64,000 nucleotides of DNA from IMG/VR virus record IMGVR_UViG_3300025697_002467, one strand, 5' to 3'. This DNA comes from a virus. Taxonomy: Duplodnaviria > Heunggongvirae > Uroviricota > Caudoviricetes. This document shows, in pieces, positions 1,116 through 26,918 of this stretch (positions within the stretch are counted from its first letter, which is position 1; each line of letters opens with the position of its first letter). The notes under the pieces are model-generated. The model made no database searches. It was not told the origin of the DNA and was given only the letters and a program-made list of their open reading frames with translations. Made by a program: the position numbers and the translations under genes.

Positions 1116-1192
1116 TGGTACTCGTGACAGGGCTCGAACCTGTAATCAACGGCTTCGAAGGCCGGTGCCTTATCCAGTTAGGCCACACGAGC
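1116..1192 (-). tRNA. tRNA-Arg (anticodon TCG)
   Basis: Manual cloverleaf: acceptor GCTCGTG/CACGAGT, anticodon loop CTTCGAA, T-arm GGTTCGAGCCC, encoded CCA. Confidence 0.8.
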
Positions 1193-1197
1193 ATAAG

Positions 1198-1665
1198 TTA
1201 TTTATAGGCCAGAATATCAATCCCAGCTTCTTCTAACATCAGGGCAGAAATCTTGAAATCTTCTCCCCACCTCGGCATCTCGAAATCCGGTACAGAACAA
1301 ACCATCTGAGTTATACCAGACTGAATGATACCCCGAGCACAGTCTGTACATGGGAACCATTTTAAATATATTGTACAGTTTTTCAGAGGAACCCCAGTTC
1401 GAGCTGCATTGTAGATAGCATTCCGCTCTGCATGTTCAACCCACTTGTATTTCTCAGGTCTGACTTCATACCGTTCTTTCTTGTCTTTAACTCCTCGGGG
1501 AATTCCGTTGTATCCTAACGACCGAACTTCTCTGTCCGGACCGACGATAACAGCCCCTACTCCGGTGGAAGGGTCTTTGCTCCACTTTTCAACTGTTCCA
1601 CATAAGTCGAGAAATTTCTTATCCCATCTGCTAAGTTGGGAGTATTCGGTTTCTTTGAGAGGCAT
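1198..1665 (-). CDS. dCMP deaminase (deoxycytidylate deaminase)
   Basis: HAERNAI and PCTDCA zinc-binding motifs of the cytidine/dCMP deaminase family. Confidence 0.85.
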   Translation of the reverse strand: MPLKETEYSQLSRWDKKFLDLCGTVEKWSKDPSTGVGAVIVGPDREVRSLGYNGIPRGVKDKKERYEVRPEKYKWVEHAERNAIYNAARTGVPLKNCTIYLKWFPCTDCARGIIQSGITQMVCSVPDFEMPRWGEDFKISALMLEEAGIDILAYK

Positions 1666-1678
1666 TTTATTCTCCTAT

Positions 1679-1870
1679 TTAGTTACCTGTTTTCTCTGGT
1701 AAAGGACACCATTCAGGAGTCCCTTCCTCTGGGGTTGGTTTATTCATAACTTTACAAGTATCTGTTATTTTAAAACTCGCACAACCAGAGGGGTCTACTG
1801 ATGTAGTTTCTTGAGCATTAATCTGATTTGGACATCCTTTGCAAGAAAAAACTTTAAAATATTTAATCAT
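1679..1870 (-). CDS. hypothetical Cys-rich small protein
   Basis: ORF of 63 aa with CxxC pairs; no recognisable domain. Confidence 0.35.
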   Translation of the reverse strand: MIKYFKVFSCKGCPNQINAQETTSVDPSGCASFKITDTCKVMNKPTPEEGTPEWCPLPEKTGN

Positions 1871-1873
1871 TTC

Positions 1874-2167
1874 TCACCTTTTCCGTTTACGGTGGTTAGA
1901 TTCTTTGGTTTTCATATACTGACCGGGCGGAACTTTCCGGATAAACTTGACAGCTTTGAAAAACCGATCATTGGCCATCAATCCGGCAATAGTGTCCAGC
2001 TCCAAGACAGGATTCCTCAACTCGTGATTGCTAAACAAAGTATGGATTGTCTTATGGCATTCACGGCATACTAACTCAATGTCCTTCTTATCAGTTTTCT
2101 GAGTTTTCATATGGTGTTTCTCCATCAACTCAGGTACTTCTCTTTTACACAATGGGCATTTATTCAT
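1874..2167 (-). CDS. HNH endonuclease (small)
   Basis: CPLC...HH...CRECHKTIH HNH zinc-finger pattern; the start overlaps the upstream gene. Confidence 0.7.
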   Translation of the reverse strand: MNKCPLCKREVPELMEKHHMKTQKTDKKDIELVCRECHKTIHTLFSNHELRNPVLELDTIAGLMANDRFFKAVKFIRKVPPGQYMKTKESNHRKRKR

Positions 2168-2718
2168 GTCAATTTCGGTATCATTATTTTATTTACAGCT
2201 TCATTAAGATCTTCCAGAGTCCCATCGTTAACGATTATGTGATCCGGGATAATGTGATCTACCCCTGTCTCAGTTTCATGTTTCTGTTCATTATCTGTTG
2301 AAGTAGGTCCGCCAGGACGATCCACTCGGATAACATAGTCACAGAAAGCTGCTTCAAAGGGCAATCGGATATCTGAAATGATAGCTACTTTAGGACGGTA
2401 AGGGTGGCTGTCACGGATGTCTTGCTCAAGAGCTCGTAACCACACCATCTCATCCAAACCACGGAAAAAGGATGATATCTTTTGTAAGGCTTCTCGGCCT
2501 GTTAAGTCTGGGGCTATAGTGGATGCTTTCCCTGCAGTACTCCAGGTGTCAGCACCCCATAACCCTTGCACAACCTTCTTCATGTAATTAGACAACTGGA
2601 AAATTAAACTGGAGCCCCCTAACCTACTAATCCGTATAGTTAGAGCATCGGACACGGCATCTTTACCTGACATCATTTTGCCAGTGACTCCAATAACAAT
2701 CGTGTAATTATCAATCAT
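2164..2718 (-). CDS. P-loop kinase, deoxynucleoside monophosphate kinase-like
   Basis: Walker A GVTGKMMSGKD at the N-terminus. Sits among dUTPase and dCMP deaminase genes, as T4 gp1-like dNMP kinases do. Confidence 0.5.
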   Translation of the reverse strand: MIDNYTIVIGVTGKMMSGKDAVSDALTIRISRLGGSSLIFQLSNYMKKVVQGLWGADTWSTAGKASTIAPDLTGREALQKISSFFRGLDEMVWLRALEQDIRDSHPYRPKVAIISDIRLPFEAAFCDYVIRVDRPGGPTSTDNEQKHETETGVDHIIPDHIIVNDGTLEDLNEAVNKIMIPKLT

Positions 2719-2886
2719 TTTTTCCTCGTTTTATTAGGAAATCCCCGGGGATAGGTTTTTGTATTTCTCCCATAGGGTATTTTTCTTTTGCATTCTCGTG
2801 ACGAATACGAGAACGCTCTTCTTTGCCTATAGCCCGCCAAGCATTTAATGTTAGTAAGACAATTCTTTTTTGATCTTCTGTCATAT

Positions 2887-3231
2887 CTAATCTTTCTCCT
2901 GACCGAAATGGGCTTTAGCACATGTCTCACAGAAATAAATCCCACAGTACAAACATCGATAAGCATAGTGCATATTGATGGTTTTTCCACAAACACAAGT
3001 TACGTCAGGACATTTACCCCTGATTTGCTTATACTGTTTCTTGTATGCTGCCCGTTTATCAGGGATTGACATATTTGCCGTCGGGTCTACACCACACTCT
3101 GCTTCCTTATCCTTCAATTCTTTCAAGGCTAAAGCCCTGATGCTCTCAAGACGAGCTCGTATTTCAACGGTATCTCCATAGGAATTAGGAAACCTGTCTA
3201 TCTCAGCCATGATTTTCTTGTATGTTGACAT
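2887..3231 (-). CDS. hypothetical zinc-ribbon protein
   Basis: ORF of 114 aa with a C-terminal CxxC...CxxC cluster. The overlapping ORF 2715..2996 may be an alternative or spurious call. Confidence 0.45.
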   Translation of the reverse strand: MSTYKKIMAEIDRFPNSYGDTVEIRARLESIRALALKELKDKEAECGVDPTANMSIPDKRAAYKKQYKQIRGKCPDVTCVCGKTINMHYAYRCLYCGIYFCETCAKAHFGQEKD

Positions 3232-3428
3232 TAGTTTTTCTTCATGAGGTTAAAGGTTTTGGCCCCCTCAACACATTTGGGGTTGTCATTGCAATACCTG
3301 ACGTTCATGTCCATCGTGCCTGCGGGCATATTCATGTCAGCACTTATATCCCGTTTAAACACGGAGATTTGGGCATCCGGTCGTTCTGTATCACAAACGT
3401 GACATTTCCATTTTAAATCATTCATCAT
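3231..3428 (-). CDS. hypothetical protein
   Basis: ORF of 65 aa, Cys-rich. Confidence 0.35.
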   Translation of the reverse strand: MMNDLKWKCHVCDTERPDAQISVFKRDISADMNMPAGTMDMNVRYCNDNPKCVEGAKTFNLMKKN

Positions 3429-3554: not shown

Positions 3555-4364
3555 TCAGTCATCGTCTTCATCCTTTAAGTGTTCCTTCATACGGGAGTCA
3601 ACATCTGCTGCATCTCCCATTACAGAAGGTTTTTGATCTTCTGCCCATTTGTAGACCTGTTTTGTGTCTGGCATCTTCTGAGTTTTGAACATATTATTGA
3701 CAACAGCATTCGGGCAAAGAGGCATTAGTCCTCGAATGGTCGGGAGTGAGTTGCACCCCATTGAAACACCTTTGTGTTTTCCATCCTGAATATCTTTCAT
3801 GTGTTCGTCCCAGTTAGAGAGGGTCTCCAGATTATAGTTATTGGTTGCCAGCTCGTAGTTTGAATACTGTTTCTGGCCTGTGATTTCTTTAAGACACCAA
3901 TCAGGAACTACTACAACAGAACCTTCAGGATCATTTTTATCTTCAGGGTCTGTGTATTCCAACTCAGCAATACGAAGACCTTTGTAACGATCCTCATAAA
4001 GGTCTACTTCAAAGACATGGTATGAAACCAGATTCATGATACAATACCGTACCTTATGAATTACAGCATCACCACAACGATCTATTAATGAATAAGCATC
4101 ATCAAGACTGATAGGGAATTCAAACTCATCCCTAGTAGTTCCGGCAGCATCTAAGAAATCACTCTTTAGGGTTAGATAGGCCATATCTTTTATCAGAGGG
4201 TGTCTGTTTTTAAGCTCTTTTTGAACACGTACTCGAACAACCATACCAGAGAATTTCCCAAGATAACCTTGAATGATATCATAAACATCCTCAGCTTTCT
4301 TAAGTAGGTCGTTTTGATAATAACTGGCACTAACTAACCAACGGCGTTCTATTTCTTTTGACAT
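3555..4364 (-). CDS. CYTH-domain protein (triphosphate tunnel metalloenzyme family) with a C-terminal extension
   Basis: N-terminal EIERRWLV matches the CYTH ExExK signature (EIERKFLV). Confidence 0.55.
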   Translation of the reverse strand: MSKEIERRWLVSASYYQNDLLKKAEDVYDIIQGYLGKFSGMVVRVRVQKELKNRHPLIKDMAYLTLKSDFLDAAGTTRDEFEFPISLDDAYSLIDRCGDAVIHKVRYCIMNLVSYHVFEVDLYEDRYKGLRIAELEYTDPEDKNDPEGSVVVVPDWCLKEITGQKQYSNYELATNNYNLETLSNWDEHMKDIQDGKHKGVSMGCNSLPTIRGLMPLCPNAVVNNMFKTQKMPDTKQVYKWAEDQKPSVMGDAADVDSRMKEHLKDEDDD

Positions 4365-4920: not shown

Positions 4921-4997
4921 TGGTGGGTCTGTACGGATTTGAACCGTAGATCGTCCGGTTATGAGCCGGGTGCATTAACCAACTATGCTACAGACCC
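4921..4997 (-). tRNA. tRNA-Met (anticodon CAT)
   Basis: Acceptor GGGTCTG/CAGACCC, anticodon loop CTCATAA, encoded CCA. Confidence 0.8.
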
Positions 4998-5465: not shown

Positions 5466-5466
5466 A

Positions 5467-5541
5467 TGGTGACAGGAGAGGAATTTGAATCCACAACCTC
5501 TCGAATATGAGTCGAGGGCTCTACCATTGAGCTATCCTGCC
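5467..5541 (-). tRNA. tRNA with CAT anticodon (elongator Met, or Ile2 if lysidine-modified)
   Basis: Acceptor GGCAGGA/TCCTGTC, anticodon loop CTCATAT, encoded CCA. It directly abuts tRNA-Cys. Confidence 0.75.
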
Positions 5542-5960
5542 TTAATTTTTGGTTTCGTTGTTAAACGAAACGAACCCATTAAAAAATCTCCAAGGTTCTT
5601 CATATTTTCAGTTCTTATATCCATACTGCCCTCTTTATAGACGGCTATTGCTTTTTCTTCAAGCCCCTTATGGAACTTATATAAACTTTCCATAGTATGA
5701 TCTCCGTTCCCTAACCCTACAGGGGAACCACAGTCGTTATTTTCCCATTCATCAGGTTCCATAGGTCGGATGTTTTTTATTTTACCACCAAAAAGATCAA
5801 TGAAGATTTGTATAAGGTACATATCAAATTCATCTCTGACTTCGGGTCTGTCCCATTGCATAAGGGATTCTTCTAATTTAAAAATCCTTCCAGCATCAGT
5901 ATGAAGTCTGTAAACGTCTCCAAGTTTTCTTAAATCCAATTTCCCGTGATATCCCATCAC
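5532..5960 (-). CDS. hypothetical protein
   Basis: ORF of 142 aa whose stop overlaps the tRNA 5' end by 10 nt. Confidence 0.5.
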   Translation of the reverse strand: MMGYHGKLDLRKLGDVYRLHTDAGRIFKLEESLMQWDRPEVRDEFDMYLIQIFIDLFGGKIKNIRPMEPDEWENNDCGSPVGLGNGDHTMESLYKFHKGLEEKAIAVYKEGSMDIRTENMKNLGDFLMGSFRLTTKPKIKAG

Positions 5961-6289
5961 TCCCCCTTTTCTTCGAAGAATGGAAAGGGGACTCGTTGAG
6001 TCGAACTTTCCATTACAATTTTACCACCACCGTCTATATATACAAGACCTTTGGCCCCATGCTCATTCTCAACCATGTCTGCTTGAGAACGCTGACACTC
6101 AGGACAAGAAACAATTCTCATCTCTGGTCGGTCAAATGGGTGAATTGGTTTCCCATCTTCATCCCATGCAGTCAGCTTTGTGTTTCCTGTGAACTGGAAA
6201 TGGAATCCTTGAACAGGTTTGTCGGCTGTTCCAGGCAGTTCCAGTTTTTCTTTGTCGCCCCATTCCTTGCCACATTTACACTTGTTCAT
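5957..6289 (-). CDS. hypothetical zinc-binding protein
   Basis: CKCG...CPEC motifs in a 110-aa product. Confidence 0.5.
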   Translation of the reverse strand: MNKCKCGKEWGDKEKLELPGTADKPVQGFHFQFTGNTKLTAWDEDGKPIHPFDRPEMRIVSCPECQRSQADMVENEHGAKGLVYIDGGGKIVMESSTQRVPFPFFEEKGE

Positions 6290-6298
6290 AATTACTCC

Positions 6299-7168
6299 TT
6301 ATAAAATGGTTCCGGGAGAAGGAATCGAACCCTCGTCTGATGAACCAAAATCATCCGTCTTGCCGTTAGACGATCCCGGAATGTATCCTTTTTTTACCCA
6401 TTTTCTTATTGAAGTATTACTAACTCCCAACATACTAGCAACCTCCAACTGGGTTTTTTCTTTTAGCAGTATTAAAAGTTCTTGAAAAGATATATCTACT
6501 GGGATAGCTTTTGTTTTCATTATGCAAAAGAAACATAACCCAGATTTACCATGTTTTGTGATTGCACGGCCACATTTTTTACAATTATATGCCTTTTTTC
6601 GTTTGGAAGCCCCACAAAAAGTAGGTTGCTGGCTGTTGCAATTAGGGCATAGTAGACGTAAATTTTCTAATCTGTGATCGTCTCGGACTCCGTTTATATG
6701 ATCCAAAACTAGAACTAATGGTTTCTTGTCCCACATAGGGAGCAACCCGCAAAGGACACATTTGTTTTTTAGTATTCCTTCGTGTAAAAGACGTTTTTTC
6801 AAATGACCCCTACTGTAAGTAGAGTGTTCCACCATTATTTTTTCAAGTGGTCTTTTCTGTGCTTGTCTGCGTTCCTTTAGTTTCCCACAGTTCTTTTTTA
6901 AACTGTTTCGTACAAACTCATTGTAATCTAAACCCATTTCTTGCATTCTGTTTTTTACAGTATAGTGGTTCCCCCCAACCCCTTTCAACCCAAAAAACTC
7001 TAATACTTCTCTAATGGAATCACTATTGTTTAGAAGTTCGATGAATTTGTCGTCTTCTAATTTCCATATAGGGCTTCTTCGTTTTCTAGTGTGCATACAT
7101 AAACCTCTGTTATTAATAGTTAGAACCTGTACTATTATCAATGGTATAGGTTTTTTAGAATAAGTCAA
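6299..7168 (-). CDS. HNH homing endonuclease with a C-terminal HTH-like domain
   Basis: LDHINGVRDDHRLENLRLLCPNCNSQ HNH core. It is a paralog of the 24065..24778 gene. The last ~25 codons read through tRNA-Gln in antisense. Confidence 0.8.
   Translation of the reverse strand: MTYSKKPIPLIIVQVLTINNRGLCMHTRKRRSPIWKLEDDKFIELLNNSDSIREVLEFFGLKGVGGNHYTVKNRMQEMGLDYNEFVRNSLKKNCGKLKERRQAQKRPLEKIMVEHSTYSRGHLKKRLLHEGILKNKCVLCGLLPMWDKKPLVLVLDHINGVRDDHRLENLRLLCPNCNSQQPTFCGASKRKKAYNCKKCGRAITKHGKSGLCFFCIMKTKAIPVDISFQELLILLKEKTQLEVASMLGVSNTSIRKWVKKGYIPGSSNGKTDDFGSSDEGSIPSPGTIL
6307..6380 (-). tRNA. tRNA-Gln (anticodon TTG)
   Basis: Acceptor TCCGGGA/TCCCGGA with a U1:A72 pair typical of tRNA-Gln, anticodon stem GATGA/TCATC, loop TTTTGGT, short D-arm. 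Confidence 0.7.
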
Positions 7169-7326: not shown

Positions 7327-7359
7327 ATACAACAACCCACGAAAATCAAAAACTAAGCC
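7327..7359 (-). promoter_or_regulatory. conserved phage promoter-like motif (plus-strand text CAACAACCCAC-N9-AAACTAAGCC), copy 1
   Basis: One of at least 13 copies of the same bipartite element with an invariant 9-nt spacer; intergenic between the divergent HNH genes. Confidence 0.45.
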
Positions 7360-7399: not shown

Positions 7400-7774
7400 A
7401 TGAAAGGAAATGTCATGCCTAATCCAAATATTCAATGTTCAGCTTGTGGGAAACCAATCTACAGGTCTCCTCGTCAGATAGCCAAATCAAAAACAGGTCT
7501 TTTCTACTGTTGTAAAGCTCATCAGAAGAAATGGCGTTTCTACAAGATGACAGCATATCGGAAATTGGCTTTCGATAATTTCCCTCATAAATGTGATGAA
7601 TGTGGTTATGATTTCATGGAGATCCTTGAAGTTCATCATGTGGATTTCAACCACAGTAACGACCAGCTCGACAATCTTCGGATCTTATGCCCGAACTGTC
7701 ATCGGGAAATCCATTGGTACGGACGTGGAGAAGCTGCTATGGAAGCAGCTTATGAACCTGACTGGGAAGATTGA
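7400..7774 (+). CDS. HNH endonuclease
   Basis: HHVDFNHSNDQLDNLRILCPNCHREIH plus an N-terminal CxxC...CC zinc finger. It is divergent from the 6299..7168 HNH gene. Confidence 0.8.
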   Translation: MKGNVMPNPNIQCSACGKPIYRSPRQIAKSKTGLFYCCKAHQKKWRFYKMTAYRKLAFDNFPHKCDECGYDFMEILEVHHVDFNHSNDQLDNLRILCPNCHREIHWYGRGEAAMEAAYEPDWED

Positions 7775-8656: not shown

Positions 8657-8732
8657 TGGTGGAGCTTGTCGGGCTCGAACCGACCACCTTCTGCGTGCAA
8701 GGCAGACGCTCTTCCAGATGAGCTAAAGCCCC
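8657..8732 (-). tRNA. tRNA-Ala (anticodon TGC)
   Basis: Acceptor GGGGCTT/AAGCTCC carries the G3:U70 alanine identity pair; anticodon loop CTTGCAC; encoded CCA. Confidence 0.8.
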
Positions 8733-8942: not shown

Positions 8943-9521
8943 TCATGGTGTATACATTCCTCTATGTTCTTCCAAGAACTCATTAGTACCATGTCGAGTA
9001 TCTTTACCCGATAAAATATCTTTTAATCGGCGGTCGTATAATATTACGTTCACGGCAGCAGCCAAATTCAGGCAATGGGCTGTCGGAATCGTCACGAAAC
9101 TGTGTGCCCAGTTCAGAACCGACTTTGGTAATGACCCGTCTTCTGGCCCAAAGATATAAAGAGCATTCTCTGGGTGTTCAAAGTGTACCAGATTTTCCGA
9201 GTTCGGTCGAACTTCTATGGCCACAGGGGTCACATCAATTTTATCAAAAGCTTTCCAATATTGATCATTGTGAATAACTTCTACTTTTTGATAACCCTTC
9301 ATCCGTTCCTCCCGTGGGAGTCGGCTGAGGTCATCCAATTTATCAATCACTCGGTCTCCTGTGAACCAAAGCTGGTTCATTCCCCAACAGGAACAGGCTC
9401 TTAGAGCATTGCCTACGTTGTGTGGGTCACGGGGATTAATGAGAAGGACTCCTGGTGGCACCGGTGTTCGTTTCTTCATCATCTCTTGGATGTATTTGGC
9501 TTTAACTGCTTTAGTGCTCAT
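8943..9521 (-). CDS. SpoU/TrmH-family RNA 2'-O-methyltransferase
   Basis: SPOUT motifs NPRDPHNVGNALRAC, LYIFGPEDGSLP and IPTAHCLNLAAAVNVILYDR. Confidence 0.8.
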   Translation of the reverse strand: MSTKAVKAKYIQEMMKKRTPVPPGVLLINPRDPHNVGNALRACSCWGMNQLWFTGDRVIDKLDDLSRLPREERMKGYQKVEVIHNDQYWKAFDKIDVTPVAIEVRPNSENLVHFEHPENALYIFGPEDGSLPKSVLNWAHSFVTIPTAHCLNLAAAVNVILYDRRLKDILSGKDTRHGTNEFLEEHRGMYTP

Positions 9522-13328: not shown

Positions 13329-13375
13329 TCCAGTTTCCATCCAATGCCTCGTGGAGGCTGCTTGACATCATTGGA

Positions 13376-13448: not shown

Positions 13449-13464
13449 AAAAAAGTTTTTCTCA

Positions 13465-15664: not shown

Positions 15665-16357
15665 GTGTTGATTATGATCCCTTTATATACCCCAGAAGAA
15701 TTCGAGAATGCTAAGTCCAGAGAGAAACTCCCCATCAAATGTAAACGCTGTGGAAAAACATTTTATAAGACCAAACATGTTGTGTATATGACATTCTCAA
15801 AGACATCTACCACAAATGATTTCTGTAGCAGATTTTGTAGTTCTAAATATCTTCATGAAAGCCGCTGTGTTGATTTTGACTGTGAGCAATGTGGAAAACA
15901 CACCAGTAATATCTTATCTGAATTTAATAGAAACAAACACCATTTCTGTTCTCGGTCTTGCTCTGCTACCTATTATAACCAAAGGAAACAAACAGGAATC
16001 CGAAGGTCAAAATTTGAAGTCTGGGTTGAAGAACAGTTGGTCTCCTTGTACCCAAATCTTGAATTTCACTTTAATAGGAAAGATACAATCCAATCGGAAC
16101 TTGATATTTATATCCCATCTCTTAAATTAGCTTTTGAGATAAATGGTATTTTCCATTATGAACCCATCTTTGGTCAAGATAAACTTGACCGAACTCAAAA
16201 GAATGAAAAAGGAAAGTTTGCAGCTTGTTTTGAAAAGAACATTAGCCTTTGTATAATTGATATTAGCACTTTAAATTATTTTAAACCAAAAAAGGCTCAA
16301 AAGTTCCTTGATATTATTACTACTATCATTGATCAAACTCTTAGCCTGGAGTCTTAA
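15665..16357 (+). CDS. putative homing-type endonuclease: zinc finger plus Vsr/DUF559-like nuclease (paralog 2)
   Basis: Paralog of the 12633..13328 gene with the same SELDIYIPSLKLAFEINGIFH core and a near-identical RBS region (ccatctccttataggaggtgttgattatg). Confidence 0.55.
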   Translation: MLIMIPLYTPEEFENAKSREKLPIKCKRCGKTFYKTKHVVYMTFSKTSTTNDFCSRFCSSKYLHESRCVDFDCEQCGKHTSNILSEFNRNKHHFCSRSCSATYYNQRKQTGIRRSKFEVWVEEQLVSLYPNLEFHFNRKDTIQSELDIYIPSLKLAFEINGIFHYEPIFGQDKLDRTQKNEKGKFAACFEKNISLCIIDISTLNYFKPKKAQKFLDIITTIIDQTLSLES

Positions 16358-16374: not shown

Positions 16375-16449
16375 TGGTACGGGAGGAGGGTTTCGAACCC
16401 CCAGCTTCTGCCTTGTAGGGACAGATTTCTACCATTGAATTACTCCCGC
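16375..16449 (-). tRNA. tRNA-Val (anticodon TAC), tentative
   Basis: Acceptor GCGGGAG/CTCCCGT, anticodon stem CTGTC/GGCAG, loop CCTACAA with an unusual C33, T-arm GGGGGTTCGAAACCCTC, encoded CCA. Confidence 0.6.
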
Positions 16450-17747: not shown

Positions 17748-17824
17748 TGGTAGACCCAGTGGGAATCGAACCCACAACCTTCGGATTAAGAGTCCGCTGC
17801 TCTGCCTGATTGAGCTACAAGTCC
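17748..17824 (-). tRNA. tRNA-Lys (anticodon CTT), tentative
   Basis: Canonical D-arm and T-arm with anticodon loop CTCTTAA. The acceptor stem holds four G:U pairs, so this could be a weak or pseudo tRNA. Confidence 0.5.
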
Positions 17825-18169: not shown

Positions 18170-18246
18170 TGGTACCCGTGGTAGGACTCAAACCTACAAT
18201 TTTCGGAATAGAAATCCGCTGCCTTATTCAGTTAGGCTACACGGGC
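18170..18246 (-). tRNA. tRNA-Arg (anticodon TCT)
   Basis: Acceptor GCCCGTG/CACGGGT, anticodon loop TTTCTAT, encoded CCA. Confidence 0.75.
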
Positions 18247-18327: not shown

Positions 18328-18405
18328 TGGTCGGGCTGCTGGGGCTTGAACCCAGAAATCTTCGGTGTAGGAGACCGCTGCTCTATCCAGTTGAGCCACA
18401 ACCCG
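18328..18405 (-). tRNA. tRNA-Arg (anticodon CCT)
   Basis: Acceptor CGGGTTG/CAGCCCG, anticodon loop CTCCTAC, T-arm CTGGGTTCAAGCCCCAG, encoded CCA. Confidence 0.7.
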
Positions 18406-18753: not shown

Positions 18754-18837
18754 TGGCGGAAGAGACAGGAGTCGAACCTGCTAATGTTTTACCACCGACG
18801 GTTTTCAAGACCGCTTCCCACCGTTAGGCTCCCTTCC
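18754..18837 (-). tRNA. tRNA-Ser (anticodon TGA), type II with a long variable arm
   Basis: Acceptor GGAAGGG/CTCTTCC, anticodon stem GCGGT/ACCGT, loop CTTGAAA, a roughly 18-nt variable arm, encoded CCA. Confidence 0.75.
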
Positions 18838-19022: not shown

Positions 19023-19418
19023 TTAACCCAATTCCTCAATCATTTTATTGATGTCTTCCTTGGACAGATTTTGCATATCATCTGTCTCTTTCTGAGCCAA
19101 GAGGTTCATCAAGAACTGCTTTCTCTCCTTGTTGCTCTTAGCTTTCAGAACAGCTTCGTTCTCAGCTTTGCGTACCTGGATGACATGTTTGACGATATCA
19201 AATTTGTTCTTGGAAGTTTCATCAACTTTTTTTACATCATCCACAAAGGAAACCACGTCAGAAGCTTCTTTTGTTTCTTTGTACAAATCCAGGGCAATAC
19301 TATTGAGATTAGCTTTGCCAGTCTTGGAGGTTAAAGGTATGTCCCAAAGGTCTTCAGTGGTAAGATTACCTTGTGGGGTGTTAAATCGGAATTTCTGTCT
19401 TGTTGCTTTTTCAAACAT
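19023..19418 (-). CDS. hypothetical protein
   Basis: ORF of 131 aa, charged. Confidence 0.5.
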   Translation of the reverse strand: MFEKATRQKFRFNTPQGNLTTEDLWDIPLTSKTGKANLNSIALDLYKETKEASDVVSFVDDVKKVDETSKNKFDIVKHVIQVRKAENEAVLKAKSNKERKQFLMNLLAQKETDDMQNLSKEDINKMIEELG

Positions 19419-19434
19419 CTGATTTTCCTTTCAA

Positions 19435-21447
19435 TTAGAAAATGATTTTAATATCCCGTCTGAACGACCCTCTTACTCGGCACACTACCGAGTTTTTCTT
19501 CGTAGAGGAGAACCCCAGACCAGATAACTGATTGTCAGTACCTTCTATCGTTGTTTTGGAACCGACGATTTCAAGAACTTTACGGTGTTTATCAAGTTCG
19601 GTTGTGAGAAATTCATTGAAGAACCCACGAGCCTTGCCTTCATGCTTACAGCCTTCCAAGAAGAAGAAACAATGTCTGTTTCCTACTGGTTTGTCACCCC
19701 AATAGTTCGGGGAAAACATTACAGTCTGTACCTTATGGAAAGACTGAGTTGTAACATTCCAGATCGTCTTCGGAGTTTGACTGGTCGGTAAGGACGAAAG
19801 AATCTTGAATACTCCATCCTTGTACTGGATTCGAGCTACCTCTACAGTTTTCTTTGAAGGGAGGGCATTTGGGTAACTCATATGGAAAATGTTACCGTCA
19901 AATTCAATCTCTACTTCAAATCCTACATTCGTAGTGTTTCTCTTAGAATACTGATTAACACTGAGAACATAGATACCATTCTTCATCTTACGACGGTTTG
20001 GGTATGTGATGTTCTCAACAGGATCAACAGAGTTGTTCCTACCACCAGCATTCATATCTACGTCAAGTCTTCCACCTGTGCTAACTGAGCGTTTAGTACT
20101 GAAATGTATATGGTACCCACCAGCTTCTTTCATGTGGAGATCCAAATCGTCAGAGTTGAACCAACTCAGTGAACATCTGAGATCACCTGTAACATCTCCT
20201 CCGGCCTTCTTAACTCTTTCTTTAATAGAGTCAGCTACTTCCCCTGCATAACTCCAGGAAAAAGCATTCGGCCATTTGAACATCAAAGGGGCATGTTCTT
20301 GCTCTGGTGCAACCAAGCTGACAAAGTTTGGGTTGTGACGGTTTTCTACCAGAAGCTCAAGACTTTCAGCTTTAGGTAATACTTCTTTAAGGAAAATATC
20401 AATAGAAACCTCTTCCATTTTATCAGAGCTTTTGATCTTTTCAGAAGTTCCGGCAGCTACTTCATCAAACACGTCATTCATCAGTTCTTTTGCAGAACGA
20501 TCAGCAAACAACACATCGGTAGCCGAGATGTCTTCCAGTACAGCAAGGCGTCTTTCGATGGATGGTAAGAAGCCAAGGTCTTCGATTGTTTTTTTGGCTT
20601 TGGCTACCATAGTTTTGGTTACTAATGCCGTTGGACGTTTGTAGTTTTCAGGTGCAACTTTTGCTTCAAAAGAACCTACTGCATGATCCAATGCAACTTC
20701 ATTGGACAAGTCAACAAGCAGAGTACCTATTGAAGTGCTTCGGATTCTGAGTGTTGCTTCTGAACCAGACTGAACTTTTGACCAGCAGAAAAACGTCTTG
20801 TTTTCAGCTTTATCAAACTCAGTTTTCAGCTTTTTGAAGGCTGTAACTATAGCCTTCTGCTCTTCACCACGGTAAAGGGAATTCTGGCCGATGAGTTCAA
20901 GAACGGTATCAATAGCATCAACTTTGATTTCTTCCAAAGAACGGAACATCACATCAAAGGTTGAACGGTATCTGCCGAGCTTGGTTCCAATGTCTGATTT
21001 CTGGCATTGTAAACTTGCAGGGAGTTTGAGATAAAAGTGTTCCCATTGAATCCTGTCGGTGGTGCCTTCTTTTTCCTCAAAGTTCTTGTCCACTCCAATA
21101 GCACTTTCACTGTGAAGGAAGACGTTTTCAATAGCACAGGACTTCACAAGAGCGGATAAAGCATCCGTAACAGGTTGATAACCCTCACCAACCTCTACAT
21201 CCCACAGGCTTACCAACTCACCCTTATGGATGACAACCATACCACCAGCTTGTTTAATGAACTGACGGCAGCAAGAACAATCGTGTTCCGTTCGTTCTCG
21301 GAAAATTGGGTTAGTGCCTTCTTCAAAAGAATTCAGGTAAGTTTCCCAGAGCAGGTCTCTGTCGACATTTACTCGAAAAACACTACCTAACTTTTGCATT
21401 TTGCTAAAATGCACACTTATAGCTTTTTTAAAAATTGAAAAATTCAT
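19435..21447 (-). CDS. large hypothetical protein (670 aa)
   Basis: Long uninterrupted ORF with a CSCC motif near the N-terminus. No domain could be assigned by eye. Confidence 0.6.
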   Translation of the reverse strand: MNFSIFKKAISVHFSKMQKLGSVFRVNVDRDLLWETYLNSFEEGTNPIFRERTEHDCSCCRQFIKQAGGMVVIHKGELVSLWDVEVGEGYQPVTDALSALVKSCAIENVFLHSESAIGVDKNFEEKEGTTDRIQWEHFYLKLPASLQCQKSDIGTKLGRYRSTFDVMFRSLEEIKVDAIDTVLELIGQNSLYRGEEQKAIVTAFKKLKTEFDKAENKTFFCWSKVQSGSEATLRIRSTSIGTLLVDLSNEVALDHAVGSFEAKVAPENYKRPTALVTKTMVAKAKKTIEDLGFLPSIERRLAVLEDISATDVLFADRSAKELMNDVFDEVAAGTSEKIKSSDKMEEVSIDIFLKEVLPKAESLELLVENRHNPNFVSLVAPEQEHAPLMFKWPNAFSWSYAGEVADSIKERVKKAGGDVTGDLRCSLSWFNSDDLDLHMKEAGGYHIHFSTKRSVSTGGRLDVDMNAGGRNNSVDPVENITYPNRRKMKNGIYVLSVNQYSKRNTTNVGFEVEIEFDGNIFHMSYPNALPSKKTVEVARIQYKDGVFKILSSLPTSQTPKTIWNVTTQSFHKVQTVMFSPNYWGDKPVGNRHCFFFLEGCKHEGKARGFFNEFLTTELDKHRKVLEIVGSKTTIEGTDNQLSGLGFSSTKKNSVVCRVRGSFRRDIKIIF

Positions 21448-21940: not shown

Positions 21941-22016
21941 TGGTGGAGCTGGCGGGAGTCGAACCCGCTACCTCTTGAATGCCATTCAAGCACTCTACCA
22001 GATGAGCTACAGCCCC
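21941..22016 (-). tRNA. tRNA-Ala (anticodon GGC)
   Basis: Acceptor GGGGCTG/CAGCTCC with a G3:U70 pair, anticodon stem CTTGA/TCAAG, loop ATGGCAT, encoded CCA. Confidence 0.8.
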
Positions 22017-22600: not shown

Positions 22601-23395
22601 TGTGACCTCCTTTTTAAAGGTTTCACAACATGACGGACCTCCTTCCTTGGTTAAAGATACTGAGCTGTAGGCCAAAAATACCCACACCATCTAATAGATG
22701 CCTTCACTTAGGCAAAGGTACTCAGTAAGTCATTCAGTATATTATGCCGAGCTATGAGTCATGAACTCATCAACCAATCTTTAAGTAAAACACACTCCCA
22801 AAGCTTAACTGAGAAGCTGATCAGCACTTGATACAGCTCGTAGGCAGCTACCTACAATGAATTACCAAACCAGATTAACCGCCCCTTACAGGAACAGGGA
22901 CTCTCGACATAATACACCGAACAGTTTAAATTATCAACCCTTAGCAGGGATTGAACCTGCATTCTCCACTATACGTGGCATCCTACCGTTAGAAGATAAG
23001 AGTTAGATGTGCAATCCCCTAAACAATCAAAGCCTTTCCTAGGATGCTCTTCTTTAATCTAGGTTCTTACAATTATCAAAAAACCGGTGGGTAACAGACA
23101 ACCGTGAAAGGATTGTTACTTCCTATCTCGGCAAAGAGACAGATGAGTACCTTATGGTTGATGCCTTTAGTGAGGTTGGACTAGCTTTGCAGAGCATACC
23201 AACTGAACTAATGCAGAGGTCTGAAACCCTAATTACCTTATTCAATATCCTATCAGGAAATGCAGTTCCAGACAGTTAGATTTGAACCAACGTCCTCCTG
23301 CACTCTGGCAGGTGCTCTACCAGACTGAGCTACATCCAGATTTGCATGACCTGATACGATATTGAATTGCTATTTAGTTTTCAATGAACGTCTTT

Positions 23396-23432
23396 CTTAC
23401 TACAACAACCCACGGGAATCCAAAACTAAGCC
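23396..23432 (-). promoter_or_regulatory. conserved promoter-like motif, copy 4
   Basis: Extended form TTCTTACTACAACAACCCAC...AAACTAAGCC. Confidence 0.45.
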
Positions 23433-23444
23433 AAAGTTGTAAAA

Positions 23445-23519
23445 TGGAGACCCCGACGGGGATTGAACCCGCGTTACCGGATTGAGAGTCCAGCTTCCTA
23501 GCCACTAGAAGACAGGTCC
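23445..23519 (-). tRNA. tRNA-Glu (anticodon CTC), tentative
   Basis: D-arm CTTCTAGTGGCTAGGAAG, anticodon stem CTGGA/TCCGG, loop CTCTCAA, T-arm GCGGGTTCAATCCCCGT, encoded CCA. The acceptor has one A:G mismatch. Confidence 0.5.
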
Positions 23520-23771
23520 TTAATTTTTAGTTTCTTTTCTCCAAGTTACTGTTTTTAATTTGGGTTCTTGTGGTTTGTAGTTTTCCATACTATCACCAAA
23601 TACCCTTACAAGACCTACATTATTAACTGCTGCTGTTGAGTTTGTTGGTGTAGGGTTTGTTTTTATAACTTCTGGACAATGTTCACAATGAGGACATAAA
23701 GTCCAATCATTTGTGATTTCTTTTGAAGGAAACCATTCTAAACATTGCTGGCATTGTTTACGTTGTTCCAT
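23520..23771 (-). CDS. hypothetical zinc-ribbon protein
   Basis: The listed 23520..23969 ORF runs through two tRNAs; the internal Met (MEQRKQCQQC...CPHCEHC) gives an 83-aa product. Confidence 0.4.
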   Translation of the reverse strand: MEQRKQCQQCLEWFPSKEITNDWTLCPHCEHCPEVIKTNPTPTNSTAAVNNVGLVRVFGDSMENYKPQEPKLKTVTWRKETKN

Positions 23772-23908: not shown

Positions 23909-23983
23909 TGGTACGGGCGGAGGGGATCGAACCCTCGACAATTGGTTTATCAGACCAATCTTCTACCACTGAAATACACCCGT
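23909..23983 (-). tRNA. tRNA-Ile (anticodon GAT)
   Basis: Acceptor ACGGGTG/CGCCCGT, anticodon stem TTGGT/ACCAA, loop CTGATAA, encoded CCA. Confidence 0.8.
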
Positions 23984-23989: not shown

Positions 23990-24065
23990 TGGTGGGACTG
24001 GGGCGGCTCGAACGCCCTACTTACGAATTAAAAGTTCGTTGCTCTACCTGTTGAGCTACAGTCCC
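23990..24065 (-). tRNA. tRNA-Lys (anticodon TTT)
   Basis: Fully canonical cloverleaf: acceptor GGGACTG/CAGTCCC, anticodon loop CTTTTAA, encoded CCA. Confidence 0.85.
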
Positions 24066-24778
24066 TAATGGTTTCTTAGGTGTTTCCGAATGGCATTATC
24101 AGAAACCCCAAGTTTTTTTGCTACTTGTGTCATAGGCATACTGTTTACTAACACCATCAAGTCTTTATAGGATGGCCATTCTATTTTAGTGGGCCTTACC
24201 CTTGACTTTTCTGCACAAATTTTACATTGTTGTGAAGTATGGAACTTTACTCTTCCACAAGAACAAATAGTTTTATCTGATTGAGGTTTTCGGTATTTAT
24301 TACGTCCTTTATAAGTAGGGAGTTGGGAATCACAATGAGGGCATATAATTCTTAAATTTTCTATCCTGTTATCAGAGCTATCCCCATTTATATGGTCTAA
24401 GTGTAAGATTAAAGGCTGACCTTTCCAGATTGGCTCCTGCCCACATAAGGAACATACATTATTTAAGAGTTTCTTTGACAACAACCGATGTTTTAAATTA
24501 TATGTTGATGTGTTTGGTGAATTAGAAACCAGTATCTCTGATAGTTTCCTTTTTTTATGATACCTACTAATATTATTTGATAAATGTGATACATCAACAC
24601 CATCATTAAGTGCTCTAGTTAATAATGTCATCCTGTTTGAACCTACAGGGCGTAACCCACATCTAGTGAGGGCTTCAGACATTGTTTTAGATACTTGGAT
24701 AATATCTCTAAATTCATCAATTGTTTTTTCATAAATAATACTAGGCATTTGAACCTCCATTCTTAGTGCTTTACACAC
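24065..24778 (-). CDS. HNH homing endonuclease with a C-terminal HTH-like domain
   Basis: LDHINGDSSDNRIENLRIICPHCDSQ HNH core; paralog of the 6299..7168 gene. Its stop codon abuts the tRNA-Lys 5' end. Confidence 0.8.
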   Translation of the reverse strand: MCKALRMEVQMPSIIYEKTIDEFRDIIQVSKTMSEALTRCGLRPVGSNRMTLLTRALNDGVDVSHLSNNISRYHKKRKLSEILVSNSPNTSTYNLKHRLLSKKLLNNVCSLCGQEPIWKGQPLILHLDHINGDSSDNRIENLRIICPHCDSQLPTYKGRNKYRKPQSDKTICSCGRVKFHTSQQCKICAEKSRVRPTKIEWPSYKDLMVLVNSMPMTQVAKKLGVSDNAIRKHLRNH

Positions 24779-24975: not shown

Positions 24976-24980
24976 ATAAA

Positions 24981-25057
24981 TGGTCCGATACCCCAGATTT
25001 GAACTGGGAACCTCTTGATCCCGAACCAAGCACCCTACCAGATTGGGCCAGTATCGG
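24981..25057 (-). tRNA. tRNA-Pro (anticodon CGG)
   Basis: Perfect acceptor CCGATAC/GTATCGG, anticodon stem CTTGG/TCAAG, loop TTCGGGA, encoded CCA. Confidence 0.75.
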
Positions 25058-25180: not shown

Positions 25181-25257
25181 TGGTCGGAGTAGACAGATTT
25201 GAACTGTCGGCTTCTTGACCCCCAGTCAAGCGGTCTACCAGACTGACCTATACCCCG
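25181..25257 (-). tRNA. tRNA-Pro (anticodon GGG)
   Basis: Acceptor CGGGGTA/TACTCCG, anticodon stem CTTGA/TCAAG, loop CTGGGGG, encoded CCA. Confidence 0.75.
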
Positions 25258-25414: not shown

Positions 25415-25491
25415 TGGTCGAGGTACTCAGATTCGAACTGAGGACTTCCTGCTCCCAAAGCAGGCGGACTACCAGACTGTCCTATACCTCG
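25415..25491 (-). tRNA. tRNA-Pro (anticodon TGG)
   Basis: Acceptor CGAGGTA/TACCTCG, anticodon stem CCTGC/GCAGG, loop TTTGGGA, encoded CCA. Confidence 0.8.
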
Positions 25492-25725
25492 TTATTTGTG
25501 TTTTCGTTTCTTTAATCTTGGAACAGACCCCATCGGAGTCCATTCATATTCCCCATCAATAGGGAATTTTTGTATTTGTTTAGGATAATCTCCTACACCT
25601 TTGATGAGTATTCGTTTCTGTTCACCTGTCAGGTTTAAACATTCCTCAGAATCCAAGATCCATCGGATACGTTCCCAAACTTGGTACTTGTTCTCACGTT
25701 CGACCTGAATGGAGAACTGTCCCAT
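25492..25725 (-). CDS. hypothetical protein
   Basis: ORF of 77 aa sitting between tRNAs. Confidence 0.4.
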   Translation of the reverse strand: MGQFSIQVERENKYQVWERIRWILDSEECLNLTGEQKRILIKGVGDYPKQIQKFPIDGEYEWTPMGSVPRLKKRKHK

Positions 25726-25800
25726 ATTAGGGTCGTACTGAGAAACTTCTACTTCATAGCTTCCTGGCGGTGCATAGCTTCCTCCTGATGTAAAAATAAA

Positions 25801-25878
25801 TGGCGGAACATATGGGATTTGAACCCATGATCTCTGCCTTGACAGGGCAGCGTCTTAAGCCAACTAGACTAATGCTCC
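25801..25878 (-). tRNA. tRNA-Asp (anticodon GTC)
   Basis: Acceptor GGAGCAT/ATGTTCC, anticodon stem CTGCC/GGCAG, loop CTGTCAA, encoded CCA. Confidence 0.8.
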
Positions 25879-25886
25879 ATATATAA

Positions 25887-26432
25887 TTAAGTTCCTTGTA
25901 GAGCTGGAACTTGTTCACATTCTTCTCTTAATAGGGAGTACATTTTGTAATCCCTATGCTCACCTCTATTGAAAGCACATTTCCTCATCGTTCCTTCGTG
26001 CCGATAGTGACATTTCTCAGCTACTTTCTGGCAACCGATGTTATCAACATCCATCATAACTTGTAAACGAGGAGTTTCAAAGTTCTGGAAAAGATAATTA
26101 GACATGATCTTTAGTGCCTCAGTCATGTATCCTTTACTTCTGTGTTCGGCCTTAAAGATATGGAATCCGATCTCATACCCATTTACATAAGCACCATTTG
26201 AGAAGTACCCAATACTTCCGATAATGTTCTCTTGGGTGTTGCAGATAAGTAACCAACCCTCATCATTGTCCCACAAGCCTGTGTCCTTGAACTCTTTTTC
26301 GAGCTGAGACAGACTTCGAAGATATGAAGGCCAGAACTTACCTCTTTCAGTGAGATCGTTATCTAACTGAAGGTATTCTTCAAGGCCTTCTTTTCTGAAA
26401 GTTCTTAAAATAACTTTTTCACCTGTAATCAT
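25887..26432 (-). CDS. GNAT-family N-acetyltransferase (RimJ/RimL-like)
   Basis: GSIGY...YEIGFHIF...KGYMTEAL acetyl-CoA-binding region typical of RimJ/RimL-type GNAT enzymes. Confidence 0.7.
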   Translation of the reverse strand: MITGEKVILRTFRKEGLEEYLQLDNDLTERGKFWPSYLRSLSQLEKEFKDTGLWDNDEGWLLICNTQENIIGSIGYFSNGAYVNGYEIGFHIFKAEHRSKGYMTEALKIMSNYLFQNFETPRLQVMMDVDNIGCQKVAEKCHYRHEGTMRKCAFNRGEHRDYKMYSLLREECEQVPALQGT

Positions 26433-26595
26433 TTTCTCACCTCTATATAATGAACTTATTATATGATACCCAAAATGACGGGTTTCTCGGGAAGGGATTT
26501 GAACCCTCTTTACACTGACCTTTGGCCAGCATCTTTACCAGTATGTTGCATCTCCGATAATTCCCTAACAGACTGTCATGACAGTCCATTAACAA

Positions 26596-26671
26596 TGGCG
26601 ACCGTATAGGGGTTTGAACCCTAGTTGCCGAATTGAAAGTCCGGTGTCCTGACCAATTGGACGATACGGTC
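26596..26671 (-). tRNA. tRNA-Glu (anticodon TTC)
   Basis: Perfect acceptor GACCGTA/TACGGTC, anticodon stem CCGGA/TTCGG, loop CTTTCAA, encoded CCA. Confidence 0.8.
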
Positions 26672-26719
26672 ATTAAATGTTTTTGTCAGAAAAACTATAC
26701 TTTTTTCTGACAAAATAAA

Positions 26720-26794
26720 TGGCTCCTGGAACAGGATTCGAACCTGTATTGAGACGGTTAACAGCCGTCGGCCTTACCAATCGGCCATCCAGGA
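26720..26794 (-). tRNA. tRNA-Asn (anticodon GTT)
   Basis: Perfect acceptor TCCTGGA/TCCAGGA, anticodon stem GACGG/CCGTC, loop CTGTTAA, encoded CCA. Confidence 0.8.
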
Positions 26795-26842
26795 ATAAAA
26801 TTTCAATTTGTCAACATCCAATAAACTTGGACATTCAAAAAT

Positions 26843-26918
26843 TGGGGTGGATGACGAGAATTGAACTCGCCTAAACTTGGGCCACAACCAAGCGGTCAAC
26901 CACTGACCCACATCCACC
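26843..26918 (-). tRNA. tRNA-His (anticodon GTG) with an encoded G-1
   Basis: Extra 5' G opposite discriminator C73, the His identity element. Acceptor GTGGATG/CATCCAC, anticodon loop TTGTGGC, encoded CCA. Confidence 0.8.

Follow-up and report, generated by a model that had tools for sequence, protein, structure and literature searches.

Why does a phage carry close to thirty transfer RNA (tRNA) genes, and why do predicted enzymes of tRNA maintenance lie among them? The question is raised by a stretch of DNA of 64,000 nucleotides (nt), referred to below as the window, from the IMG/VR virus record IMGVR_UViG_3300025697_002467 (Duplodnaviria; Heunggongvirae; Uroviricota; Caudoviricetes). Between positions 1116 and 26918, the window holds an island of tRNA genes in which a SPOUT/SpoU-class RNA methyltransferase, a PTH2-like protein and a GNAT acetyltransferase are also encoded. 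With a probability of about 0.6, we read this locus as a tRNA supply-and-maintenance module that would keep translation going when host tRNAs are cleaved or depleted.

The locus is the tRNA island of an uncultured jumbo phage. The source contig exceeds 200 kb, and one contig carrying the window's proteins falls in the size range of 0.2-1 Mb. No megablast-level DNA match to the region was found among the GenBank phages (50,697 records), where the nearest record for both the SpoU protein (49.7%) and the PTH2-like protein (38.8%) is LR756511.1, a 595-kb uncultured phage. A SpoU relative at 63% identity, with four tRNAs around it, is encoded on the 350-kb IMG/VR phage contig L004. Closer relatives are metagenomic, namely the contigs L095 (SpoU protein 84% identical) and L097 (DUF8224 protein 86% identical). 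Both keep the tRNA order, with tRNA orthologues that are 69-100% identical to those of the window, and differ from it in the intervening cargo: DNA methylase, RF-1-like and OGFr_N genes in L095/L097 stand at the places of HNH and SPFH genes in the window. Some anticodons differ at equivalent positions, as exemplified by Pro-GGG of the window, which is best matched by Pro-TGG of L097. Another contig, L099, is a mosaic variant. To the left of the window, 4.1 kb of flanking sequence was recovered from metagenome contigs of the same phage population.

The tRNA content was determined with the use of ARAGORN, which called 28 tRNA genes, and the Rfam model RF00005, which gave 29 matches. All of them lie on the minus strand between positions 1116 and 26917, in good agreement with the about 30 minus-strand tRNAs claimed in the original prediction, and neither program found a tRNA in the remaining 37 kb of the window. 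The Rfam scores range from 37 to 69 bits (gathering threshold, 29 bits), with 26 of the 29 matches at 52-69 bits. The final tally comprises 27 canonical tRNAs, a probable tRNA-Ser(UGA) and two aberrant tRNA mimics. They are listed here; the basis is ARAGORN and RF00005 unless the line says otherwise.

1116..1192, minus strand: tRNA-Arg(TCG), encoded CCA, Rfam 63.7 bits, L095 orthologue 87% identical
4921..4997, minus strand: tRNA(CAT), elongator Met or Ile2, Rfam 68.4 bits
5390..5465, minus strand: tRNA-Cys(GCA)
5467..5541, minus strand: tRNA(CAT), elongator Met or Ile2
6307..6380, minus strand: tRNA-Gln(TTG), overlapped by the 3' end of the HNH open reading frame (ORF) 6299..7168
8657..8732, minus strand: tRNA-Ala(TGC) with G3:U70, directly downstream of the SpoU gene, likewise in L095/L096
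13372..13449, minus strand: initiator-like tRNA(CAT)
14252..14327, minus strand: tRNA-Gly(CCC)
15029..15104, minus strand: tRNA-Gly(GCC)
15115..15190, minus strand: tRNA-Gln(CTG)
15202..15278, minus strand: tRNA-Arg(ACG), 8 nt downstream of the PTH2-like gene
16375..16449, minus strand: tRNA-Val(TAC), C33 replacing the nearly universal U33
17748..17824, minus strand: tRNA-Lys(CTT), L097 orthologue 88% identical
18170..18246, minus strand: tRNA-Arg(TCT)
18328..18405, minus strand: tRNA-Arg(CCT)
18758..18837, minus strand: probable class-II tRNA-Ser(TGA), by relaxed ARAGORN and the Rfam tRNA-Sec model
21941..22016, minus strand: tRNA-Ala(GGC) with G3:U70
22936..23003, minus strand: tRNA-like element B, Rfam 37 bits, 'Ile(tat)' in relaxed ARAGORN
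23240..23367 (core 23267..23339), minus strand: tRNA-like element A
23445..23519, minus strand: tRNA-Glu(CTC), Rfam 47.2 bits
23798..23871, minus strand: tRNA-Gly(TCC)
23909..23983, minus strand: tRNA-Ile(GAT), identical in L097
23990..24065, minus strand: tRNA-Lys(TTT)
24981..25057, minus strand: tRNA-Pro(CGG)
25181..25257, minus strand: tRNA-Pro(GGG)
25415..25491, minus strand: tRNA-Pro(TGG)
25801..25878, minus strand: tRNA-Asp(GTC)
26596..26671, minus strand: tRNA-Glu(TTC)
26720..26794, minus strand: tRNA-Asn(GTT)
26843..26918, minus strand: tRNA-His(GTG), encoded G-1 included

The anticodons claimed from manual folding were recovered (Arg TCG/ACG/TCT/CCT, Pro CGG/GGG/TGG, Gly CCC/GCC/TCC, three CAT, Gln TTG/CTG, Ala TGC/GGC, Lys CTT/TTT, Glu CTC/TTC, and Cys, Val, Ile, Asp, Asn and His), together with G3:U70 in both tRNA-Ala and the encoded G-1 of tRNA-His, which is position 26918 and stands opposite C73. 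The isoacceptor sets are complete for Gly, Pro, Arg, Gln, Glu and Lys. No tRNA for Leu, Thr, Phe, Tyr or Trp was found in the window or in the 4.1 kb to its left. CCA is encoded at 27 of the 28 ARAGORN calls, the exception being the aberrant call at 23265..23340. The tRNA genes are interspersed among protein genes of the same strand in a long leftward gene block. A tRNA was regarded as decoding-competent when it had a 7-nt anticodon loop with U33, a 5-bp anticodon stem, and N73-CCA or an addable 3' end. These features were found in 27 ARAGORN tRNAs and in tRNA-Ser(UGA), save for C33 in tRNA-Val; they were not found in 23267..23339 (6-nt loop, no CCA) or 22936..23003 (short arm). The island thus plausibly encodes about 28 functional-looking decoding tRNAs for 15 amino acids.

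Two members of this set deserve closer description. The claimed serine tRNA was not called at default settings by ARAGORN or Rfam, but the relaxed search gave a probable candidate at 18758..18837. It ends in G73-CCA, its acceptor stem pairs perfectly over 7 bp and its variable arm is long, and it gave a sub-threshold match to the Rfam tRNA-Sec model (39.3 bits, E 1.6e-6). In its L097 orthologue, a G-C pair of the anticodon stem is changed to U-A and a G.U pair of the acceptor stem to G-C. As the anticodon-stem change is compensatory and the flanks diverge, we accepted tRNA-Ser(UGA) as real. The relaxed ARAGORN search with introns produced 172 calls, mostly spurious, and only tRNA-Ser(UGA) and the 'Ile(tat)' mimic were retained. 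A 'tRNA-Leu with a 287-nt intron' at 26929..27300 was rejected; it showed no group I intron match and only a T-arm-like remnant. The second is the tRNA at 13372..13449. Bacterial initiators are marked by a 1:72 mismatch, A11:U24 and three consecutive G:C pairs at the base of the anticodon stem, and this tRNA has a U1xU72 mismatch, G2-C71/C3-G70, A11:U24, and two G:C pairs plus one U-A pair in the anticodon stem. Compensatory anticodon-stem changes occur in the L095 relative. One extra base precedes CCA in the window (GU-CCA), and the L095/L096 orthologue has the canonical A73-CCA; judging from its 3' end, the initiator-like tRNA may need 3' repair or be partly defective.

Three protein genes within the island are central to the question of tRNA maintenance.

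8943..9521, minus strand: SPOUT/SpoU-class RNA 2'-O-methyltransferase, 192 amino acids (aa), Pfam PF00588
15286..15585, minus strand: PTH2-fold protein of a short subfamily, 99 aa, Pfam PF01981
25887..26432, minus strand: GNAT acetyltransferase of the Acetyltransf_3 clade (RimJ/RimL/SpeG/MccE-like), Pfam E 7e-20

The first of them matches SpoU_methylase PF00588 with E 5e-19 (69.2 bits; gathering cutoff, 29.7). It belongs to a tightly conserved family (1907 homologues, about 180 aa, about 60% identity), in whose alignment the SPOUT motifs PHNVGxALR(41), FGPEDGS and IPTxHCLNLAAAVNVxLYDRR are invariant, including the catalytic Arg41 of motif 1. A SpoU/TrmH 2'-O-methyltransferase had been proposed at this place, one that might protect G18/Gm18 of phage tRNAs. 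The ORF was exact and the SpoU superfamily is correct, but neither TrmH nor Gm18 was established, since TrmH matches no better than TrmJ or TrmL. The NCBIfam models TrmJ, TrmL and RlmB gave 24-39 bits against cutoffs of 160-190, below all the subfamily cutoffs (TrmJ, 39.4 bits vs. 167; TrmL, 31.8 vs. 190.6), and no TrmH model was among the NCBIfam hits. The PDB matches were alike: E 3.7e-4 for T. thermophilus TrmH (1v2x), 3.4e-4 for TrmJ, and 5e-4 to 1.6e-3 for TrmL/YibK. The 'TrmL' label on relatives in JGI is given by COG only, and the window has no tRNA-Leu, the TrmL substrate. At the level of sequence, the enzyme is not assignable to TrmH, TrmJ or TrmL.

The relatives of the SpoU enzyme were analyzed for their gene context. 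They lie inside tRNA arrays in L004, in L095/L096 and in two contigs of metagenome-assembled genomes, L016 (13 tRNAs in 8.5 kb) and L037 (24 tRNAs in 6.6 kb), and in the Rhodococcus phage Trina the relative adjoins an RNA ligase. Among the 50,697 phage records, five contain a SpoU relative, and no PHROG family was matched. When bacterial genome contigs were scanned for SpoU homologues with a single-protein query, no match was obtained. An alignment query against genome contigs yielded homologues of 37-59% identity (>46% in the top ~25 loci). Their phyla (Planctomycetota, Acidobacteriota, Alpha-, Beta- and Gammaproteobacteria, and others) gave no coherent host signal.

The second protein matches PF01981 with E 3.5e-5 (24.4 bits; cutoff, 23), and a profile of its ~98-aa family matches archaeal Pth2 structures of the PDB over the full length with E 1e-7. 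An AlphaFold2 (AF2) model reached a predicted local distance difference test (pLDDT) score of 95. Its top 14 Foldseek neighbours all belong to the Pth2/Bit1 family at template modelling (TM) scores of 0.6-0.77, two of them having been deposited as proteins of unknown function. The predicted structure confirms the PTH2 alpha/beta fold. In archaeal Pth2, the catalytic residues are the Lys of the GK motif and the Asp and Thr of DAGxT. In the PTH2-like family, the position of the DAGxT Asp is taken by the invariant Glu74, EPDI replaces DAGxT with a 4-residue deletion, and the His of the HA motif is invariant. For the PTH2-like hydrolase that had been predicted here, the coordinates were exact and the fold is right, but the canonical catalytic Lys is gone. 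Peptidyl-tRNA hydrolase activity is plausible. Of the 52 phage records with a relative, 26 are listed or tallied by name, and 25 of those 26 belong to phages of 300-600 kb such as Lak, XacN1, CBB and GAP32. The named ones are mostly Lak-type Prevotella phages; others are given by genus and include seven mycobacteriophages. The PTH2-like gene also lies inside the tRNA arrays of two distant contigs, near an RF-1-domain gene in L102 and near a Thg1 gene in L103.

In both of these distant contigs, a tRNA with a CTA anticodon directly follows the PTH2-like gene. Such amber suppressor tRNAs were located in L102 (8300..8375), L103 (8292..8366) and L013 (44589..44662), and no suppressor tRNA was found in the window. 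The abutting genes in L102 and L103 hint at stop-codon recoding in those phages. The tRNA island of L095 contains a 207-aa release-factor-like gene (5558..6181; PCRF and RF-1 domains, GGQ motif), which has no counterpart within the window.

The third protein, the GNAT, had been described as RimJ/L-like. Its coordinates were exact and the superfamily holds, but RimJ/RimL specificity does not, the score lying far below the cutoff: the NCBIfam RimL model gave 38.2 bits against a cutoff of 184. GNATs of the SpeG, AAC(6') and MccE types match at similarly low levels in the PDB and NCBIfam. A further relevant gene was found outside the window, on contig L005 of the same phage population. It codes for an RtcB RNA ligase (6185..7090; Pfam RtcB E 1.2e-61) and lies about 3.2-4.1 kb to the left of window position 1, on the opposite strand; RtcB is also encoded in the relative L095. 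The earlier reading of a phage tRNA array with translation-related enzymes among its genes is supported. Other contigs of giant phages also carry relatives of SpoU and PTH2 inside their tRNA arrays, at 46-63% identity in distantly related ones, and this supports a functional link. The position of the GNAT within the array is kept in L097.

In the mechanism that we propose for the supply-and-maintenance module, host RNase P and 3' exonucleases would release the tRNAs from long transcripts, and host synthetases would charge them, as no synthetase was seen in the window. They would then supplement or replace host tRNAs depleted in infection, most plausibly by tRNA-targeting defence nucleases of the host and by general host shut-off. 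RtcB would reseal cleaved tRNAs, and the SPOUT enzyme would methylate a ribose in tRNA. Were that position in the anticodon loop, methylation would stop nucleases that work without metal and depend on the 2'-OH. The PTH2-like protein may free tRNA from peptidyl-tRNA dropped off stalled ribosomes. Homing endonucleases and cargo genes would insert among the tRNAs and reshuffle the island from one related phage to another. Compensation for host tRNA cleavage was one of two purposes offered in the original prediction, and it is strengthened by RtcB beside the window and by an experimental precedent, the T5 tRNAs that neutralise PARIS and retron defences (PMC11464382, PMC11555353). Evasion of anticodon nucleases has also been proposed for phage tRNAs on the basis of sequence (PMC10264068).

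Several points weigh against this reading. Members of the PTH2-like family have Ser-Gln, at a variable position, where archaeal Pth2 has the Lys of the GK motif. For the GNAT, sequence establishes the Acetyltransf_3 clade only, and no substrate is called. The SPOUT enzyme has a putative tRNA substrate and a hypothetical ribose position, and its homologues at about 70 bacterial loci show no tRNA array. The anticodon loops of the phage tRNAs are canonical except for C33 of tRNA-Val. With five amino acids uncovered, the set cannot sustain translation alone. The host signal is incoherent, so no tRNA-targeting defence can be named and the anticodon loops of phage and host cannot be compared.

A possible but not a likely alternative is general upkeep of translation after host shut-off, in which decaying host tRNAs would be topped up late and no specific defence would be involved. 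Between the tRNAs are genes of nucleotide metabolism (RNase HII, dCMP deaminase, dNMP kinase, dUTPase, guanylate kinase and a deoxyribosyltransferase-like protein), of which the dCMP deaminase, dNMP kinase, dUTPase and guanylate kinase fit a recycling of host nucleic acids. The breadth of the set, with 15 amino acids and complete isoacceptor sets, points the same way, as does the near-universal encoded CCA, which would make the tRNAs independent of CCA addition. Degradation of the host translational machinery as a driver of tRNA acquisition is an idea cited in PMC11025619. However, upkeep of this kind leaves the association of RtcB, a 2'-O-methyltransferase and a PTH2-like protein with the arrays unexplained, and the five uncovered amino acids would still limit translation. 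It is compatible with the supply-and-maintenance module and not exclusive of it.

Codon compensation, the classical hypothesis, according to which the tRNAs supply codons used more by the phage than by its host, appears doubtful for this phage. The codon usage was determined for 67 ORFs of at least 100 aa (14,627 codons). The mean relative synonymous codon usage (RSCU) was 0.96 for codons with a Watson-Crick cognate phage tRNA, compared with 1.04 for the remaining codons of these amino acids (p = 0.37); the bias of phage ORFs towards the encoded isoacceptors that the original prediction had looked for is therefore absent. Presence of a phage tRNA does not go with heavier use of an amino acid (p = 0.61), and the most frequent amino acid, Leu, has none. 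The tRNA set covers from 69% (strict wobble) to 77% of the phage codons, and the five amino acids without a tRNA make up about 23%. In favour of the hypothesis, the C34 isoacceptors CUG, CUC, CUU, CCC, CGG and CCU are present and their G-ending codons are non-negligible (CAG 41%, GAG 31%, AAG 32%); one of the CAT tRNAs could be Ile2, and 25% of the Ile codons are ATA. Isoacceptors for rare codons, said earlier to be over-represented, do occur, but as members of complete sets, and their cognate codons are not preferred. Codon choice is also shaped by a frame-independent avoidance of GCG and CGC, and tRNA-rich mycobacteriophages gave no signal of codon compensation (PMC10264068). The phage's own codon use does not explain the tRNA set, which argues against simple supply tuning.

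The homing endonucleases of the island bear on the last alternative. There are at least five genes of this type, plus a weak candidate at 1874..2167.

6299..7168, minus strand: HNH homing-endonuclease-like gene with a helix-turn-helix (HTH), PHROG 10822 E 5.6e-40, Pfam HNH_3
7400..7774, plus strand: small HNH endonuclease ORF, Pfam HNH E 2.2e-6
12633..13328, plus strand: homing-endonuclease-like gene, paralogue of 15665..16357 (79% DNA repeat), PHROG 559 E 1.3e-13
15665..16357, plus strand: homing-endonuclease-like gene, PHROG 559 E 1.5e-14
24065..24778, minus strand: HNH homing-endonuclease-like gene abutting tRNA-Lys, PHROG 10822 E 2.7e-40

Largely non-adaptive accretion, in which a recombination hotspot driven by homing endonucleases would gather tRNAs and small enzymes as coincidental neighbours, agrees with these five or more genes in 26 kb, with the differing cargo among conserved tRNAs of relatives and the mosaic variant L099, with decayed tRNA-like remnants, and with the unrelated DUF8224 and SPFH-domain genes encoded in the island, but it is very unlikely given the high covariance-model scores and compensatory substitutions of the tRNAs and the recurrence of SpoU and PTH2-like genes in arrays of distantly related contigs (46-63% identity).

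The two aberrant elements were analyzed separately. Element A lacks CCA. Its D and T arms are normal, its acceptor stem contains G3:U70, and a 5-bp stem carries its 6-nt 'anticodon' loop. Its flanks pair into a long helix (~22 paired bases over 25 positions, with internal loops), and the minimum free energy (MFE) of folding is -55.9 kcal/mol (z -5.95). A second allele, common to L097 (5392..5546) and L099 (~3768..3922), keeps the arms, flanks and helix, and an unrelated 41-nt segment replaces the 16-nt central arm. The long helix shows one compensatory change, U-A to C-G, in a comparison that covers two alleles, with further copies in one JGI contig and in no IMG/VR contig. From these conserved features, element A is read as a conserved tRNA mimic, the only unusual element of the island.

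Element A was compared with bacterial Y RNAs, which mimic tRNAs and are bound by Ro60/Rsr (Chen et al. 2014, PMC4201824). Like the YrlA/Yrn1 Y RNAs, it has D and T arms and an acceptor-like stem that runs on into a long terminal helix interrupted by internal loops, and its 5-bp 'anticodon' stem with a 6-nt loop is the same as in D. radiodurans Yrn1. The RtcB gene near element A recalls the rsr-yrlA-rtcBA operons. The differences are that Rfam YrlA (RF02553) gave no match at E <= 1 across 22800..23600, that the Rsr-binding motif GNCGAA(N)G is absent from the 5' strand of the element, and that no TROVE/Ro60 gene was found among the ORFs scanned. Identification of element A as a YrlA RNA or a tmRNA was rejected for lack of a model match.

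Element B has acceptor, D and T arms, a shortened anticodon arm and no CCA, and its counterpart in L097 (5550..5622) has a different anticodon arm. On these features, it is classed as a non-decoding mimic or a pseudogene. A tRNA remnant with a perfect T-arm and a weak acceptor stem lies at 26929..26965 on the minus strand, upstream of tRNA-His. A degenerate tRNA copy lies at ~22746..22813 (minus strand), where L097 and L099 have a 72-nt 'tRNA-Leu(TAA)' call. Together with element B, these decayed remnants suggest that pseudogenisation also occurs in the array.

A more specific, two-part proposal is tentative, and we think it improbable as a whole. In its first part, the window enzyme and its ~60%-identical relatives would form a distinct SPOUT subfamily, a mobile-element 'tRNA immunisation' enzyme that travels with phage tRNA arrays and RtcB and 2'-O-methylates phage or repaired tRNAs at a nuclease-sensitive position, making them resistant to host anticodon nucleases. 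In its second part, element A would be a non-decoding mimic, with a G3:U70 core on a 25-bp helix and a hypervariable central arm, that either functions as a Y-RNA-like cofactor or diverts a tRNA-binding host factor as a decoy.

The island also contains a gene for an SPFH-domain protein and a gene pair (19023..21447, minus strand) coding for a 670-aa DUF8224 protein (19435..21447) and a conserved 131-aa partner (phrog_2018). Matches to DUF8224 occur in more than 550 phage records, including phiCbK-like phages, phiRSL1, Ackermannviridae and Bacillus phages, and the small downstream ORF was confirmed beside it in PhiSH19, phiCbK, L097 and L098. The protein gave no Pfam or PDB sequence match, and its AF2 model (pLDDT 80) showed only a TerD-like beta-sandwich domain. 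A role as a tRNA or Ro60-type factor was rejected on account of this sole domain and the absence of a tRNA context in PhiSH19 and phiCbK. The 'RNA polymerase' label of DUF8224 in a few GenBank records is unsupported.

A 32-nt motif, GGCTTAGTTTTG-N8-GTGGGTTGTTGTA, occurs in 7-8 copies in the window, with 0 expected.

7328..7359, 13466..13497, 14192..14242, 23401..23432, 27497..27528, 32103..32134 and 45032..45063, minus strand, and 49456..49487, plus strand: copies of the 32-nt motif

The motif is always intergenic and co-oriented with the downstream genes, it recurs along the leftward gene block to which the tRNAs belong, five copies lie inside or at the edge of the island, and it is conserved in L097. 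As it is intergenic, gene-directed and repeated against an expectation of 0, it is probably a phage-specific promoter or leader.

Beyond the island, the region 27549..44946 (minus strand) encodes an NMNAT-type cytidylyltransferase-like protein, a NUDIX-NrtR protein, a Macro domain with a thioesterase, an ADP-ribosylglycohydrolase, an NAD synthase and an NAPRTase-like protein, together with a Ser/Thr kinase and a PP2C, which form a kinase/phosphatase pair. The NAD+/ADP-ribose genes are probably a counter-defence module against NAD+-depleting or ADP-ribosylating systems. The whole window is depleted in GCG and CGC, which reach 0.13-0.14 of the composition expectation independently of frame. GCGC is absent, TCGC occurs four times and GCGA twice, and CpG overall stands at 0.62. 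The tRNA genes, which make up 3.6% of the sequence, hold 19% of the GCG/CGC sites that are left. Among 876 Ala codons, GCG occurs 7 times, and among 695 Arg codons, CGC occurs 18 times. A gene for a C5 cytosine methylase lies at 56912..57994. The depletion suggests either an avoided short restriction/modification target or methylation-deamination decay.

The pairing of replacement tRNAs with an RNA ligase has a counterpart in phage T4, where a tRNA cluster is accompanied by Pnkp/Rnl1 repair of PrrC-cleaved tRNA-Lys. In bacterial Pnkp/Hen1, a 2'-O-methyl mark renders the repaired tRNA immune to recleavage, and the SpoU and RtcB proteins of our phage population may follow an analogous logic of repair and methylation. 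Both the protective 2'-O-methylation and the parallel with Pnkp/Hen1 are argued here by analogy. The components differ: the ligase of the phage is RtcB and not Rnl1/Pnkp, and its methyltransferase is of the SPOUT class, unlike Hen1 with its Rossmann fold. Phage T5 (Demerecviridae), whose tRNA region presumably contains HNH genes, resembles the window in having tRNA genes scattered among small ORFs and HNH endonucleases. It is in T5 that individual phage tRNAs were shown to overcome tRNA-cleaving defences. T5 has no sequence relationship to the window, however, and is without a SPOUT, PTH2 or RtcB module.

The closest similarity is to the huge and jumbo phages. Huge phages with up to 67 tRNAs and with tRNA-modification and ligation genes were described by Al-Shayeb et al. 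(2020, PMC7162821), and Iyer et al. (2021, PMC7824862) read the tRNA arrays, PTH2, ribosomal-type GNATs and RNA ligases of jumbo phages as answers to tRNA attack, covering NAD+ counter-defence as well. Our phage shares with them dozens of tRNAs, a predicted PTH2-type hydrolase, a putative ribosomal-type GNAT, RtcB and adjacent NAD+/ADP-ribose genes. It differs in that no aminoacyl-tRNA synthetase, CCA-adding enzyme or translation factor was seen in the window, and in that its SPOUT methyltransferase is rare in sequenced phages. The locus is a fresh member of an arrangement already described for giant phages, and its value is mainly confirmatory. Large tRNA sets with repair and recycling genes are now regarded as belonging to the arms race of giant phages with bacterial defences by which tRNA is cut or depleted. 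The recurrent embedding of SpoU and PTH2-like genes in such arrays makes two biochemical tests concrete. To the giant phages compared here, the locus adds an uncultured lineage in which tRNAs for replacement lie together with genes for three proteins, namely the RtcB ligase, the predicted ribose methyltransferase and the protein of PTH2 type.

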